DNA from: Candidatus Aenigmatarchaeota archaeon | GTDB lineage: Archaea > Aenigmatarchaeota > Aenigmatarchaeia > GW2011-AR5 | Length of the DNA: 64,000 nucleotides | Assembly: GCA_016198685.1 (NCBI GenBank) | Contig: JACQID010000004.1 | Coordinates: 224,001 to 288,000 of the forward strand | Direction of reading: 5' to 3' | Part shown: one piece after another, positions 26,491-33,551 of the stretch | How positions within the stretch are numbered: the first letter of the stretch is position 1 | Layout: every line of letters begins with the position of its first letter | Position numbers and translations under genes: made by a program | The notes under the pieces: generated by a model | Databases searched by the model: none | Seen by the model: the letters and a program-made list of their open reading frames with translations, nothing else | Told to the model about the DNA's origin: nothing

Positions 26491-26727
26491 TTGATCACCA
26501 TGAAACTAATGCATAAAATCGAAAATAAATGGTAAGGAACAAAAATTGTATTAATTACATATAATGCGTCCAAATTATAAATAACTATCAGCCTTTCTGC
26601 ATAAAAAAATATTTTTACGACGAATGGATAAATCCAAGCTTTATATTTTACAAAGGACTATAAGTATTATACTTCTGCAACTTTGTCGTTCATAATATTG
26701 AAAGATGCAAGCTAAAGGGGGGATTCA

Positions 26728-26886
26728 ATGGCTAAGATGAAAACTACGCGAGGAAGAAAAGCCGATCCTATAAAAAAATCAATGAATAGGATTGGGGCAA
26801 AAATTGCAGCTGCAAAGAGAACTGCAACTTCAATCGTGAAGCGAAGAAAAAACGGAAAGAAAAAAAGCAAAGGTAAGCGCAAGTAA
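26728..26886 (+). CDS. 52-aa highly basic protein (not in ORF track)
   Basis: MAKMKTTRGRKADPIKKSMNRIGAKIAAAKRTATSIVKRRKNGKKKSKGKRK; GGGGGA upstream. Confidence 0.7.
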   Translation: MAKMKTTRGRKADPIKKSMNRIGAKIAAAKRTATSIVKRRKNGKKKSKGKRK

Positions 26887-26929
26887 ATTGCTGCTTATCT
26901 TTAGTGCTGGTGCAAGGAGGTGATGCTCT

Positions 26930-27100
26930 ACGGTAAAGTGCGTTTTTTGCGACGAAGAAACTATCATAGGCAATGACGATGGCCTCTTTGCAACGCCTAT
27001 AGGCAAAAAAGCTATATGTGACGGCTGCCTAGCCGAGCTGAAAGAAATTCTAGAACGTGAACTTGCAACTTCCTTCGAGCCTTCAACTGAAGAATTATGA
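26930..27100 (+). CDS. 56-aa CxxC...CxxC zinc-binding protein with an ACG at the start position
   Basis: GGAGGTGA + 6 nt + ACG GTA AAG TGC; reads (M)VKCVFCDEE..AICDGCLAELKEIL; an in-frame TGA lies just upstream, so there is no ATG. Confidence 0.6.
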   Translation, partial: TVKCVFCDEETIIGNDDGLFATPIGKKAICDGCLAELKEILERELATSFEPSTEEL

Positions 27101-27232
27101 TATTGCCAAAGCTCTTGCTTTATCCTAAACAGGTAAAGCTGATATAACTGACTATAAAGCTATGAGATAGTTCTTTTTCTACGCGTAAGCTTGCAACATT
27201 AAAATAAATGCGACAATCGCCAGAAGATTAAT

Positions 27233-27281
27233 TTTAAATATGTTGGTTAATAGACATAGTAACATGTCAGTTGACCGACAT
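27233..27281 (+). promoter_or_regulatory. Candidate suf promoter (TATA) and PadR-type operator
   Basis: TTTAAATA at 27233-27240, 24 nt before ATG 27264; ATGT-N10-ACAT at 27264-27281; extra GACAT half-site at 27253-27257. Confidence 0.5.
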
Positions 27282-27680
27282 ATTGAGGATATTACATTCA
27301 CGGCGCCCACGGCAGAAGAGATATTTGGACGAAGCAAGATAAGCGAAATCGAGCTTGGGCTTCTACAGATGCAGATACTCTGGATACTTAATAGGCAAAG
27401 TACCCATGGATATGAGATAATGAAGATGCTTTCGGAGCTCAAGAACACGAAAATAACGCAAGGGACGCTGTATCCTACCATGCAGAGGCTTGAAAGCCTT
27501 GGATATGTCAAGAGACGCGAAGAGGAGAGGAAAATAATGTATGATATCACCGCTGAGGGCAAGACTACACTGGACAACGCCTGCGCTTCCTTTACGCGGA
27601 CTTTCTTTGGGATATTCCACGATTACGTCTGCGGGAAATGTGTGACGCGCGATCTTGTAAATATAGGTGGTAAAAAATGA
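27264..27680 (+). CDS. PadR-family regulator with a C-terminal Cys cluster
   Basis: ILWIL...HGYEIMK, GTLYPTMQRLE..GYV, RKIMYDITAEG; C-terminal AC..YVCGKC; ATGA overlap with sufC. Confidence 0.9.
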   Translation: MSVDRHIEDITFTAPTAEEIFGRSKISEIELGLLQMQILWILNRQSTHGYEIMKMLSELKNTKITQGTLYPTMQRLESLGYVKRREEERKIMYDITAEGKTTLDNACASFTRTFFGIFHDYVCGKCVTRDLVNIGGKK

Positions 27681-28411
27681 GTGAATTGATGATAGACGAT
27701 CTTCATGCTGAAATTGACGGCAAACAGATACTCAAAGGCGTGTCGCTGTGTATAAAGAGCGGCGAGACACATGCGATCATGGGGCCAAACGGAGCCGGAA
27801 AAAGCACGCTATCGCATGTGATAATGGGCCATCCTCGTTACACTATCACGAAAGGCGACATTAAGCTCGATGGGGAAAGCATATTGGAGCTTTCCCCTGA
27901 CAAGAGGGCGAAAAAAGGCCTATTCATGTCTTTTCAGTATCCGGCAGAAGTGCCTGGCGTAAGCATAGGCAGCTTCCTAAGAAGCGCTTATAATGCGGTT
28001 TCGGGCAAGGAAATGCCTGTTCTTGAATTTCAGAGACTTGTGAAGGATAGAACTGAGATGCTGGGCATAAAGCAGGATTTCATAAAACGCGGCCTGAATG
28101 AAGGATTTTCGGGCGGAGAGAAGAAGAAGTGCGAGATACTGCAACTGGCCGTGCTGAATCCAAAGATGGCGATACTTGATGAGACGGATTCCGGATTGGA
28201 TGTTGATGCGCTTAGAATAGTTTCGGATGGCATCAACAAGATAAAATTGGCGACAGGAATGGGCATCATGCTGATAACTCATTACAGCAGAATACTAAAG
28301 CAGGTCAAGCCGGATTTCGTTCACATAATGTCTGACGGCAAAATAGTGCAGTCTGGAGAAGGGACACTCGCGGTCCAGATAGAGGAGAGCGGATATTCTT
28401 CTTTAAAGTGA
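27677..28411 (+). CDS. sufC: Fe-S assembly ATPase SufC
   Basis: [38 protein letters not shown]. Confidence 0.97.
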
Positions 28412-28415
28412 AAAT

Positions 28416-29831
28416 ATGGCAGAAGTTTCAAAAGAAATCCTTGAGATAAAGGAAGGCTATGAACAGAAGTACGGGTTCAGCGCCCCGGAAAACTATACGT
28501 TCAGGGCCCAAAAAGGATTGAATGAAGAAATAGTCAGGAAGATATCGGAAATCAAGGGCGAGCCCCAATGGATGATCGATTTTCGCCTGAAGGCGTTGAA
28601 GATATTCTTCTCAATGCCTATGCCAGTATGGGGAGCTGATCTTTCTCCAATAGACTTCAATAATATATTTTATTATATTAAGCCCACAGAAAAGCAGGGA
28701 AGAACATGGGATGAGATACCCGCGGAGATAAAAAATACATTTGATAGATTGGGCATACCTGAAGCCGAGCAAAAATTCCTTGGGGGCGTTGGCGCCCAGT
28801 ATGAAAGCGAATCTGTCTATCATCATATTAGAAAAGACCTTGAGGAACAGGGAGTAGTATTCCTTGACATGGATTCCGGTCTTCGTGAATATCCGGAGAT
28901 AGTAAAGAAGTATTTCGGCAAGATAATCCCGCCAGCGGACAATAAGTTTGCAGCTCTCAACAGCGCCGTATGGTCAGGAGGCTCCTTCGTTTACGTTCCC
29001 GAAGGCGTGAAAGTGGCTACGCCTCTGCAGGCATACTTCCGCATAAACGCCAAGAACATGGGGCAGTTTGAAAGAACTCTTATAATCACGGAACCCAATT
29101 CTTCTGCACATTATACCGAGGGATGCACCGCGCCGTCATATTCTACGGATTCGTTGCACGCGGCAGTAGTGGAAATACTTGCAAAGGAAAATTCAAAGCT
29201 GCGCTACACGACGATACAGAACTGGTCAAACAATGTTTATAATCTTGTAACCAAGAGGGCGCATGCACATAGAAACGCGGTAGTGGAATGGATTGACGGG
29301 AATTTGGGCTCAAAGATCACGATGAAGTATCCGTCCGTTTATTTGCTCGGCGAAGGCTCGCAGGCGAATATAGTTTCCGTGGCTTACGCTGGCAGAGGCC
29401 AGCATCAGGATGCCGGAGGCAAGGCAATACATATGGCAAAGAACACTTCGTCAACAATACTTTCCAAGTCCATAAGCAAGGACGGGGGCAAGACGACTTA
29501 CCGTGGTCTTCTTAAGGTGGCAAAAGGCGCAACAGGCGTAAAATCAAACGTCAGATGCGATGCCCTGATATTGGATAACAAGTCCGCTTCAGATACTGTG
29601 CCTTATATGGATGTCGCTGAAAAGAACGTCAGCATAACTCATGAAGCAACTGTCGGCAAGATAAGCGAAGAGCAACTGTTCTATCTGATGTCGCGCGGCC
29701 TTAGCGAGACTGAAGCTATGGGACTTGTAGTAAGAGGCTTCATAGAGCCGTTCACAAGGGAACTTCCTATGGAATATGCAGTTGAACTCAACCGCTTGGT
29801 GCAAATGGATATGGCGGGAGCAGTCGGGTGA
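28416..29831 (+). CDS. sufB: Fe-S assembly scaffold SufB
   Basis: [41 protein letters not shown]. Confidence 0.97.
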
Positions 29832-29835
29832 TCTA

Positions 29836-30969
29836 ATGTTTACGTTAGAAGAGTCAACAAGGATCGCTGCAAGCGAACCTCAATGGGCAGCTGCAAAAAG
29901 AAAAGAAGCCGCGATAGCTTTTCTTTCCCAGCCTTCGCCTTCTGAAAGAGAAGAGGCATGGAGATATACCCTTATAGATAATTTTGATATAAACAAATCC
30001 ATATCATCCAAATCTTCTATAATATCGCACAGTCCTTTTGTCATTAAAATGGAAGACGCCCTCAAACAGAATAAAGAAGTGCTTGACACTATCTTCAGAG
30101 AAAAAAAACTGAATTGCGACAAGTTCGACTTCCTTAATGCCGCTTTCTGGACTTCAGGATATCTTGTATATATTCCGGAGAACACAAATGCGGGTTTCAT
30201 AGAAATAATCTTGCAATCCGGCATATCCCGTAATTTTATAATCATGGGAGCAAACTCCTCTGCAGAAATCTTGGAGCATATTGCGGGCGGAAACGGTCTG
30301 AATTCCAATTTTACTGAAGTCCATGCTCCGAAAGACGCCAAGCTTACTGTTCATTCACTTCATGATGTAGCTGATGATGTGAATGAATTCTCGTACAAGC
30401 GTGCATACATAGGAAGAAATTCAACAGTCAACTGGAACATTGGGCAGTTCGGAGGTTCGCTTAACCGGATAAAGGTTGAGAATTTTTTTGTCGGGCAAGG
30501 TGCGCATTCCCAAACCGTCGGAGTATTTTCCGGCGCAGGAAAGCAGCACATGGACCTTTCGACGAATGCATTCCACTCCGTACCCAATACATCCAACAAT
30601 ATTATAATTAAAGGGGCGCTGAAAGACAGCGCTTCAGAAGTCTACCGGGGCATGATAAAGATAGAAAAAGGCGCCCCGTCAACGTCATCTTATCTCTCTG
30701 ATCACGCTATAATGCTGGGCGAAAATGCTGTTTGCAACAGTATACCAAGCCTTATGATAGACAATAGCGACGTGCAATGTTCTCATTCGGCTTCAGCCGG
30801 CCAGGTTGATGAAGAAAAAATGCTTTATATGATGAGCAGGGGATTGTCGCGCGAGCAGGCAGAAACGATGATAGTTGAAGGCTTTTACGTTCCCATCATA
30901 AACGCAATACCTTCGCATGCCGTCAGGGAAAAAATGATGGACATGATAAGAAAGAGGATACTGTCATGA
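29836..30969 (+). CDS. sufD: Fe-S assembly protein SufD
   Basis: REEAWRYT, SIPSLMI..DV.CSHSASAG, YMMSRG; position in operon. Confidence 0.9.
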   Translation: MFTLEESTRIAASEPQWAAAKRKEAAIAFLSQPSPSEREEAWRYTLIDNFDINKSISSKSSIISHSPFVIKMEDALKQNKEVLDTIFREKKLNCDKFDFLNAAFWTSGYLVYIPENTNAGFIEIILQSGISRNFIIMGANSSAEILEHIAGGNGLNSNFTEVHAPKDAKLTVHSLHDVADDVNEFSYKRAYIGRNSTVNWNIGQFGGSLNRIKVENFFVGQGAHSQTVGVFSGAGKQHMDLSTNAFHSVPNTSNNIIIKGALKDSASEVYRGMIKIEKGAPSTSSYLSDHAIMLGENAVCNSIPSLMIDNSDVQCSHSASAGQVDEEKMLYMMSRGLSREQAETMIVEGFYVPIINAIPSHAVREKMMDMIRKRILS

Positions 30970-32171
30970 ATATTGAGAAAATAAAATCGGATTTCCCTTT
31001 ACTTTCCCGCAAAGTGAATGGAAAACAACTTGTTTATCTTGACAGTGCCGCGACTTCGCAGAAGCCAAAGCAAGTCATAAGCGCCATAACTAATTATTAT
31101 GAGAATCATAATGCCAATGTGCATCGCGGAGTGCACAAGCTCAGCGAAGAGGCAACCGAAGCTTACGAAGGGTCGCGCAAGAAAATCGCAGACTTTGTCA
31201 ACGCAAAAGCGAATGAAATGATATTTACCAGGAACGCGACAGAGGGCATAAACCTTGTCGCCCAATCCCTTGGCTTTCGCAAAGGGGACGAAATAGTCTC
31301 CTCTGTAATGGAGCACCATTCAAATATAGTCCCTTGGCAAATGCTGAAGAGCAGGGGGGTAACCACTAGATTTGCCGACATAGATGAGGATGGAATCCTG
31401 AAGATGGATGATTATGAAAATCTTATAACAAAGAAGACGAAGCTCATTGCAGTTACTCACGTTTCGAATGTCTTAGGTACGATAAATAACGTGAAGAAGA
31501 TAGCTAAAATTGCACATGATGCAGGCGCGCTGCTGCTGGTAGATGCGGCTCAAAGTGTGCCGCACATGCCTGTAGATGTCAGGAATATAGAAGCGGATTT
31601 TCTCGTATTTTCCGGCCACAAAATGCTGGGCCCGACAGGGATAGGATGCCTTTACGGACGATCAGAGCTTCTTGATGCAATGCCGCCTTTCATGGGAGGA
31701 GGCGATATGATAAAGGACGTCAAGCTTGAGGGCACAATATACAACGATGTGCCTTACAAGTTCGAAGCTGGGACTCCTCATATAGCAGGAGCTGTAGGGC
31801 TTGGCGCTGCGGTGGATTATCTTGTTAAAATAGGAATGAAAAACGTGCATGAACATGAGAAGAAGCTGGTGAATTTTGCAACAACGGAACTGCAGATTAC
31901 GGAAACTTACGGTAATGCTCCGGAAAACGGCGGGATTGTGGCATTCAATGTCCATGGTCTTCATTCGCATGATGTTGCAAGCATGCTCGACGAAAACGGC
32001 ATAGCCGTGAGATCTGGTCACCATTGCGCCCAGCCGTTGATGAAGCGTCTTGGCATAGTTTCTGCGGCACGCGCAAGCTTCTACGTCTATAACGATGAAG
32101 AAGATATTACAAAGCTCTCGGCTTCGCTGAAAGATATAATAAACCTATTGAAACGAAAGAAGGTGGTGTGA
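30966..32171 (+). CDS. sufS: Cysteine desulfurase SufS
   Basis: YLDSAATSQKP, NVHRG, SGHKMLGPTG, RSGHHCAQP. Confidence 0.97.
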   Translation: MNIEKIKSDFPLLSRKVNGKQLVYLDSAATSQKPKQVISAITNYYENHNANVHRGVHKLSEEATEAYEGSRKKIADFVNAKANEMIFTRNATEGINLVAQSLGFRKGDEIVSSVMEHHSNIVPWQMLKSRGVTTRFADIDEDGILKMDDYENLITKKTKLIAVTHVSNVLGTINNVKKIAKIAHDAGALLLVDAAQSVPHMPVDVRNIEADFLVFSGHKMLGPTGIGCLYGRSELLDAMPPFMGGGDMIKDVKLEGTIYNDVPYKFEAGTPHIAGAVGLGAAVDYLVKIGMKNVHEHEKKLVNFATTELQITETYGNAPENGGIVAFNVHGLHSHDVASMLDENGIAVRSGHHCAQPLMKRLGIVSAARASFYVYNDEEDITKLSASLKDIINLLKRKKVV

Positions 32172-32297
32172 ATGGGTCTTGAACCTCCAGTGGCGATACC
32201 AATGTATATAATCCTTGCTGTAATGAACGGCGTGGATATAGAGCTATTGTGGCTCGGAATTGCGGGCTTAGTAGACGTTCTGCATATGGCTATATGA
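32172..32297 (+). CDS. 41-aa hydrophobic microprotein A (not in ORF track)
   Basis: MGLEPPVAIPMYIILAVMNGVDIELLWLGIAGLVDVLHMAI; ATG directly follows the sufS stop; GGTGGTG upstream. Confidence 0.72.
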   Translation: MGLEPPVAIPMYIILAVMNGVDIELLWLGIAGLVDVLHMAI

Positions 32298-32306
32298 GGT
32301 GAGAAA

Positions 32307-32432
32307 ATGAGCAAACTTATACCTCTTATGACGCCCTTCTATCTGGCTCTCGTAGTTTTCACGCCAATAGAGTTCAGCGTTGCCGGCCTTGTAATAGCCA
32401 TATTCGCAGAGATATTGCATTTCATCTGGTGA
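32307..32432 (+). CDS. 41-aa hydrophobic microprotein B, paralogous to A (not in ORF track)
   Basis: MSKLIPLMTPFYLALVVFTPIEFSVAGLVIAIFAEILHFIW; GAGGTGA SD; 11/41 ungapped identities to A. Confidence 0.75.
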   Translation: MSKLIPLMTPFYLALVVFTPIEFSVAGLVIAIFAEILHFIW

Positions 32433-32436
32433 AAAC

Positions 32437-32838
32437 GTGTACGACATGTATCAGGAGAACATACTGGATCACTACAGGAATCCGAGGAATTTCGGCTCGC
32501 TGGCGAAGCCGGACATGGAAGCAGTAGACTACAACCCGCTCTGCGGCGATAAGATAACCATGGGAATAAAGATAAAGGACGGTAAGGTTATAGAAATAAT
32601 GTTCTCTGGCGAAGGATGCGCGATCTCCCAGGCTTCGGCATCCATGCTTACGGAAGCCGTTAAAGGCAAATCAACCGAAGAAGCTTCTGAATTTTCAAAG
32701 GATGATATGCTCGAACTTCTAGGCATACCGGTATCTGCTTCCAGAATAAAATGCGCGCTTTTGGGCTTGAAGGTCTTCAAATTAGTTTTATATGGTTTTC
32801 TCGGGAAAAGTCTTTCTGACAAAGAAGAATTAGGGTGA
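32437..32838 (+). CDS. sufU: SufU/SufE-type NifU-like protein
   Basis: YQENILDHYRNPRN, NPLCGD, GCAISQAS, RIKCA. Confidence 0.93.
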   Translation: MYDMYQENILDHYRNPRNFGSLAKPDMEAVDYNPLCGDKITMGIKIKDGKVIEIMFSGEGCAISQASASMLTEAVKGKSTEEASEFSKDDMLELLGIPVSASRIKCALLGLKVFKLVLYGFLGKSLSDKEELG

Positions 32839-32844
32839 AGAAAA

Positions 32845-33150
32845 ATGACGTTCATTAAAGTTGCAAATAAATGGGAAATAAAAGAAGGCGAGCCTAAGGC
32901 CATCGAAATCAATGACAAAGAAATCATGCTATCTAATATAGGGGGCAAGATATTCGCAGTTAGTGACATATGCAGTCATAAAAAATGCAATCTTTCGGGC
33001 GGGTTCATGGAAGGATTTGAGATAACTTGCCCCTGCCATATGGCTCGCTTTGACGTAAGAAACGGTCAAGTGACAGCTCCTCCCGCAACTGTTGATATAG
33101 AAGTCTACGATGTAAAAGTCGAAGGCGACGACGTTCTTGTTGATGTGTAA
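32845..33150 (+). CDS. Rieske [2Fe-2S] ferredoxin
   Basis: CSH...CPCH.ARFDVRNG. Confidence 0.92.
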   Translation: MTFIKVANKWEIKEGEPKAIEINDKEIMLSNIGGKIFAVSDICSHKKCNLSGGFMEGFEITCPCHMARFDVRNGQVTAPPATVDIEVYDVKVEGDDVLVDV

Positions 33151-33343
33151 ATAATATCCGGGATTAAAAAGAAATAAAATTGAAACTATTTATTACGTGT
33201 TATCTCTTTTCTAACGATACTCAAGAATTTGTTCTGCGACCCCATTTATTCTGCAGAAGCAGATCCCACAATCTCTGCAAATAAATATCCGAATACCGGT
33301 ATGCTTTATCATGCATCCAATTATTTCTAACTATTGTTGTGCC

Positions 33344-33551
33344 CTAACGAAGGTCCATTATACTTGGGATATTCGGATGCAATTTTTCCCAGTCTTTTCT
33401 CCAGTCTTCTAAACTGGCCCAGTTGTTAGACCCCCCCCCCACCTAATTCATCCTCATACTTGGATTCTGAAACGTCATTTTCAGGATACATGATGATGGA
33501 ACCTGTCCGGCAGGGATATATGGGTGTTGCTCTTCTGGTATCCTCATCCAT
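33344..33551 (-). pseudogene. Small ORF interrupted at a C10 homopolymer
   Basis: MDEDTRRATPIY..EDELG, then a stop right after the C tract at 33431-33440; a 1-nt shorter tract continues as SNNWASLEDWRKDWEKLHPNIPSIMDLR. Confidence 0.4.

Follow-up and report, generated by a model that had tools for sequence, protein, structure and literature searches.

What fills the interval between sufS and sufU in the SUF operon of a small archaeal genome, and does it take part in iron–sulfur cluster assembly? The window analysed here is a stretch of 64 000 nt (G000:C6:224001–288000) from the genome of a symbiotic DPANN archaeon (G000; 0.93 Mb in 8 contigs), assigned to Candidatus Aenigmarchaeota by the names given to near-identical proteins in databases. 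The operon runs on one strand in the order PadR, sufC, sufB, sufD, sufS, orfA, orfB, sufU, Rieske, with the following features in window coordinates:

27240–27680, + strand: PadR-type regulator gene at the head of the operon (Pfam PadR, E=2e-15)
27677–30969, + strand: sufC, sufB and sufD (Pfam ABC_tran, then SUFBD_core twice)
30966–32171, + strand: sufS (Pfam Aminotran_5, E=1e-149)
32162–32166, + strand: Shine–Dalgarno-like GGTGG, 5 nt 5′ of the orfA ATG (sequence reading)
32172–32297, + strand: orfA, a 41-aa hydrophobic microprotein (translation; family profile match, E=1e-19 per genome)
32296–32302, + strand: Shine–Dalgarno-like GAGGTGA, overlapping the orfA stop and 4 nt 5′ of the orfB ATG
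32307–32432, + strand: orfB, a 41-aa hydrophobic microprotein (translation; 37–44 % identity to the relatives P0059 and P0060, described below)
32437–32838, + strand: sufU, a NifU_N-type sulfur acceptor/scaffold with a GTG start (Pfam NifU_N, E=4e-29)
32845–33150, + strand: gene for a small Rieske-type [2Fe–2S] protein at the end of the operon (Pfam Rieske, E=2e-21)

The TGA stop of sufS at 32169–32171 directly abuts the ATG of orfA, and the GTG start of sufU is preceded by GGTGA 4 nt upstream. All three starts (orfA, orfB and sufU) thus have a GGTG-type Shine–Dalgarno-like element 4–5 nt upstream, and orfA and orfB would be translationally coupled between sufS and sufU. The first-pass annotation had described a 265 nt gap exactly filled by two ORFs, each with its own Shine–Dalgarno-like site. 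Both ORFs are present and both sites read as described, GGTGG before orfA and GAGGTGA before orfB, but the gap is not filled exactly, as 9 and 4 nt are left over. The Rieske gene 3′ of sufU is also kept in the congeneric genomes G003 and G001. In G000 and G003 orfA and orfB lie in one frame, TGA plus 9 nt apart (32295–32309); a read-through fusion was considered as a conserved feature and rejected, the spacer in G001 being 10 nt. An Rfam scan of positions 26500–33500 found no RNA family in the sufS–sufU gap. A weak match to the C/D-box RNA sn2524 lies at 33108–33212 on the – strand, at the 3′ end of the Rieske gene; at 33 bits (E=0.02) it stays below the gathering threshold of 44. Elsewhere, in a related Aenigmarchaeota genome, sufB carries an intein with Hint and LAGLIDADG domains (L071:1–1889).

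Both ORFs are almost certainly real genes. They are kept at equal lengths and with 83–85 % amino acid identity in G003 and G001, in which SufS is 85 % identical. In orfA, 17 of 24 and 16 of 23 changes fall at third codon positions (binomial P 2e-4 to 4e-4), and in orfB 13 of 20 and 12 of 21, so that the third-position bias has P values of 2e-4 to 2e-2 over the two ORFs. By the Nei–Gojobori method, dN/dS is 0.06–0.10 for orfA and 0.12–0.18 for orfB, against 0.04–0.09 for the adjacent sufU; purifying selection thus acts in the proposed frame of both ORFs at a level comparable to sufU. Independent gene callers have also called both ORFs on contigs from JGI and ENA metagenomes that carry this operon. 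The check suggested in the first-pass annotation, for conservation and a coding signal in relatives, was therefore borne out, with the ORFs kept in two congeneric genomes at dN/dS values of 0.06–0.18.

Two alternatives bear directly on these results. The first is that orfA and orfB are chance ORFs in a non-coding spacer; both have a very small size, and frames on the opposite strand are fairly open as well. Yet most of the substitutions would fall at the first codon position of the 59-aa antisense ORF, the dN/dS values are those of a selected protein, and the Rfam scan found no RNA structure that would explain the conservation. The existence of a family recognizable at the protein level, across genera and in varied gene contexts, settles the coding strand. 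The chance-ORF reading is already disfavoured and is extremely improbable. The second alternative is that the products are toxin-like or holin-like hydrophobic peptides in the style of type I toxins, which they resemble in size and hydrophobicity. Against this stand the strong purifying selection, the sense orientation and the translational coupling within a housekeeping operon; additionally, neither an antisense RNA nor an antitoxin partner can be seen, and the region has no Rfam match. This reading is highly improbable.

The two microproteins are related to each other. BLASTP aligns orfA with orfB at E=4e-5, and the gap-free alignment gives 11 identities over the 41 positions, precisely those that the first-pass annotation had listed. 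An exhaustive HMMER search with a six-sequence profile of the twin against 1.84 billion representative proteins returned three distant relatives with E values of 1e-5 to 4e-4: P0059 (46 aa), P0060 (51 aa, named as a Woesearchaeota protein) and P0058 (a 98-aa metagenome protein with two units). A second, six-frame profile search of 371 Aenigmarchaeota genomes located units in 18 genomes of 13 genera, and one Woesearchaeota genome also has them. Single genes, the orfA/orfB twin and proteins made of two fused units are the three forms of the family; the fused ones are those of G049 (97 aa), G020 (107 aa) and P0058. orfA and orfB are thus paralogues in an undescribed microprotein family restricted to DPANN archaea.

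Twenty-one units align gap-free over a 41-residue core. Tyr12 is invariant, position 35 is always acidic, and most units also share Pro6, Phe23, Trp27 and Ala31. The general layout is a basic or neutral N-terminus, Pro6, Tyr12, a helix break at about 19–22, Phe23, Trp27 and the acidic residue 35 near the C-terminus. Both orfA and orfB show the family residues (Y12, F/I23, W/G27, D/E35) and match the profile at E=1e-19 to 2e-20 per genome. Acidic residues had been pointed out at positions 22 and 35 of the twin; the second is acidic in all units, whereas position 22 varies between E, D, N, S, K and T across the family, with Asn at this site in the congeneric copies of the twin. Apart from the twin, one tandem alone carries His38, in its second repeat; the remaining units have N, D, G, Y, R or S there. 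P0059 is the best-scoring match for orfA and orfB alike; orfB has diverged less and stands closer to the single-unit relatives. This pattern fits tandem duplication of a single unit gene that was already in the suf slot.

A third unit copy in G000, of 53 aa, lies outside the window at C6:85773–85871 (L104:1456–1614:+). This copy and a Sua5/YrdC ORF are convergent, with an overlap of about 97 nt at the 3′ end of the latter; the copy is kept in G001 and G003, with changes biased to the third codon position.

Searches for named relatives of the twin were negative. The earlier statement that canonical suf operons have no such membrane subunit agrees with comparisons against Pfam and NCBIfam models of SufA, B, C, D, E, S, T and U, in which orfA and orfB gave no match, whether at curated cut-offs or with E values of up to 10. 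When orfA and orfB, the long forms, the tandems and the singles were scanned against Pfam and NCBIfam (E up to 1–10), sub-threshold noise was all that came back. An ESM Atlas search with the 107-aa tandem had a best score of 0.87, to unnamed bacterial clusters and below the useful range. The literature searched gave nothing relevant or comparable, either for suf operons with small membrane proteins or for such proteins in Aenigmarchaeota.

The link to SufS and SufU can be followed through the distant relatives. P0059, encoded on a metagenome contig of another lineage, sits between a SufS 3′ end and a SufU N-terminal motif, and the neighbouring SufS is of type II and 52 % identical to that of the window. 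The connection to suf made in the first-pass annotation thus gains from a distant relative that holds the same slot elsewhere. P0060 is divergent from an operon of ArsR-like, NifS-type cysteine desulfurase and NifU_N genes in Woesearchaeota, a different phylum. In the sister species G002 and G004 the sufS–sufU slot is occupied by one 54-aa ORF of a different family, the KEILDIFH hairpin family. The slot is variable more widely, with unrelated ORFs in some other genera and nothing in several. The gaps of G007, G008, G012, G009 and G020 (L006, L007, L010, L014 and L017) hold an assortment of ORFs: a methyltransferase-like one of 209 aa, others of 98, 110 and 130 aa without family, and a Cys-rich one of 107 aa.

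The hairpin family (alignment A4) comprises proteins of 52–89 aa with two full-length helices (AF2 pLDDT 89) and a near-invariant C-terminal KEILDI(F/V/A)H, the terminal His of which is lost in some clades (…DIVNSKG, …DIIFAR). It forms 52 clusters in a collection of 5.8 billion proteins, all unnamed or hypothetical, and the named clusters come from Aenigmarchaeota or unclassified archaeal genomes. Among the 371 Aenigmarchaeota genomes it is found in 22, from 13 genera, and 10 of 23 places, in 8 genera, have a cysteine desulfurase gene or sufU at most 1.5 kb away. The gene lies in the sufS–sufU interior, after sufU, or directly before a NifS-type gene. One hairpin gene follows a PadR gene whose product is 64 % identical to the window PadR. 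This PadR, in G016 (L043:1119–3088), heads a cluster of the hairpin ORF, a NifS-type cysteine desulfurase and a U-type scaffold, and the cluster ties the PadR regulator to Fe–S genes in another genus.

The hairpin proteins are like the twin in being small and hydrophobic, in using the same slot and in having an acidic-x-x-(D/H) motif 6 residues from the C-terminus; they are unlike it in their length of 52–89 aa, their two full-length helices and the lack of detectable homology. Homology between unit and hairpin was considered and rejected as unsupported: hhalign gave probabilities of 1.1 and 0.5 %, and in hmmsearch 69–784 of 2000 shuffled sequences (3–40 %) scored as well. The C-terminal E-I-L-x-hydrophobic-hydrophobic-x ending that both share is a post-hoc resemblance only. 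As no homology is detectable, the argument from the shared slot is one of analogy.

Against a role in the SUF pathway it may be held that orfA and orfB are real small membrane proteins with a general function, such as stabilizing the membrane or serving as a subunit of another complex, that landed in a permissive suf slot. Unit-family copies adjoin seryl-tRNA synthetase (SerRS; single-unit copies, in three genera), Sua5 (the third copy of G000), GNAT and methyltransferase genes, so that no tie to suf holds for the whole family. Likewise, G000 has three unit copies, the sufS–sufU junction holds assorted ORFs or nothing in other genomes, and in genomes packed as tightly as these the position of the twin could be incidental. 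On the other side, P0059 is in the same slot where SufS is only 52 % identical, P0060 is beside a NifS-type locus in a different phylum, an unrelated hairpin family has the same preference across 8 genera, and the tight stop–start coupling with sufS and sufU is kept in three genomes. A general, Suf-unrelated function is possible but doubtful. Gene context makes a Suf-linked role for orfA and orfB an evenly balanced proposition.

The AF2 model of orfA has helices at residues 8–19 and 21–40 with a pLDDT of 73. The hydrophobic run covers residues 6–34, about 28 residues, and is broken by a TP/SG/NG turn into arms of about 13–15 residues each. Of the hairpin of two hydrophobic stretches proposed earlier, the stretches are there, but a true double-spanning hairpin is doubtful, because neither arm reaches the length of a normal membrane span; as alternatives, one kinked transmembrane helix or a re-entrant hairpin may be considered. 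The products are presumably located in the membrane. Longer family members have a basic N-terminus and an acidic C-terminal tail, which favours a cytoplasmic N-terminus; orfA itself has no Lys or Arg and orfB only Lys3. A Foldseek search of both AF2 models against the PDB gave nothing at E<=0.001.

orfA and orfB probably work as a pair. They are an adjacent homologous pair with single and fused relatives, and the fused two-unit forms (97–107 aa) argue for joint function in the manner of a Rosetta-stone comparison, giving independent support to the pairing suggested in the first-pass annotation. A prediction of the orfA–orfB complex scored 0.01, from alignments of three rows and run without controls, and counts neither for nor against pairing. 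The two products would most likely be packed together in the membrane as a heterodimer. The reading preferred here, with about an equal chance of being right or wrong, is that orfA and orfB are translated tandem duplicates forming a membrane-embedded pair that assists the SufS–SufU step, as their gene context suggests. As a membrane-embedded accessory of this sulfur-mobilizing step, the pair might hold SufS and SufU at the membrane. It might also couple the step to the supply of a divalent metal, Fe2+ for clusters or Zn2+ for SufU, through a helix-face motif made of (D/E)35-x-x-H38 and the C-terminal carboxylate. The tethering and metal-binding functions named in the first-pass annotation are putative and read from gene neighbourhood, and other family copies lie beside unrelated genes such as SerRS, Sua5 and GNAT.

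With regard to metal, (D/E)35, His38 and the C-terminal carboxylate of the twin are spaced i, i+3, i+6, and E, D and H of KEILDIFH are spaced likewise. Judged from sequence, such spacing would suit a metal site on one helix face. A paralogous hairpin clade ends in His-rich tails (…HAHG, …SHGH), and a gene for such a His-tailed hairpin paralogue opens a ZIP transporter operon in G000, G001 and G002, with a divergent NikR 34 nt away. The G000 copy lies outside the window at C2:37917–38081 (L042:1504–1674:+) and encodes 57 aa with two helices and a …LDMTHAHG tail. In G175, from a different family, a His-tailed hairpin likewise adjoins NikR, and the fused unit protein of G020 abuts NikR–ZIP, in one of the 11 genomes of that genus. 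Among 25 ZIP loci, the long form occurs only in genus g1, that of the twin, and a tandem nearby only in G020; a systematic placement of small ORFs at NikR–ZIP loci was thus rejected, which weakens the idea of two families swapping contexts. A divergent NikR–ZIP pair is present at 14 of the 25 ZIP loci examined across this archaeal family (L105–L129), and such pairs suggest NikR-type control of a ZIP importer. A metal role for orfA and orfB is tentative and on the unlikely side.

A more specific version has the two chains form a heterodimer in which Asp/Glu35 and His38 of each ligate iron or haem, similar to cytochrome b559. The likeness to PsbE/PsbF lies in the adjacent genes and the two small hydrophobic chains with one His each. 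The (D/E)35-x-L-H38 motif is kept in both chains in all three genomes, its spacing puts residues 35 and 38 on one helix face, and the fused relatives imply pairing; the hairpin family also ends in an acid/His motif, with an HAHG tail in the ZIP-linked paralogue. However, family members outside the twin's genus mostly have another residue (N, D, G, Y, R or S) in place of His38, some hairpin clades have lost their terminal His, and there is no match to cytochrome b559 or any haem-protein model. Unlike in cytochrome b559, the His is at the C-terminal end of the helix; a bis-His arrangement of that kind is not borne out, with no family-wide His and no Pfam match. To our knowledge, DPANN archaea are generally without haem synthesis, which also counts against haem. 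The proposal that the His and acidic residues are iron or haem ligands is therefore weak: His38 and the acidic residue 22 are not family-wide, and nothing points to haem. The b559-like heterodimer is improbable.

The iron route to the SUF machinery is a long-standing question. We know of no described SUF system that is not purely cytosolic, with all of its components soluble. One extended reading would give DPANN SUF systems a membrane module, in which interchangeable twin or fused units, or the hairpin, dock SufS/SufU and pass on Fe2+ or Zn2+ imported by ZIP; this is speculative and rather unlikely. If true, this would give a SUF system a membrane component for the first time. Two unrelated small membrane families that recur at the sufS/sufU junction of genome-reduced archaea, together with a paralogue in a ZIP operon, form a testable candidate link between metal uptake and Fe–S assembly. 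The two unannotated microprotein families, the units in single, twin and fused forms, also extend the catalogue of small proteins in DPANN archaea, which is still largely uncharted. The organisms are uncultivated, both families are narrow, and the functional link is drawn from gene order.

Among known systems, the paired SMR transporters EbrAB and the Fluc/CrcB pairs offer one comparison, being likewise adjacent, diverged, homologous tiny genes with single and fused versions elsewhere. They differ in having four transmembrane helices against about 28 hydrophobic residues in each orfA/orfB unit, which has no Pfam match, and the Lys/Arg content of orfA and orfB is too low to judge opposite topology. 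A second comparison is with MntS (42 aa), MgtS, KdpF and CcoS/FixS, hydrophobic proteins of 30–50 residues that bind a larger partner and whose genes lie in or beside metal-handling or cofactor-assembly operons. Transporter regulation of the MntS/MgtS type has neighbourhood hints only in the present case, namely the long-form paralogue before ZIP and the G020 tandem beside NikR–ZIP. Unlike the proteins of this group, orfA and orfB match no Pfam or NCBIfam model, and their host operon is SUF. They are similar to them in size, hydrophobicity and setting within a cofactor operon, and by their gene context they hint at a membrane-bound helper of iron–sulfur cluster assembly.
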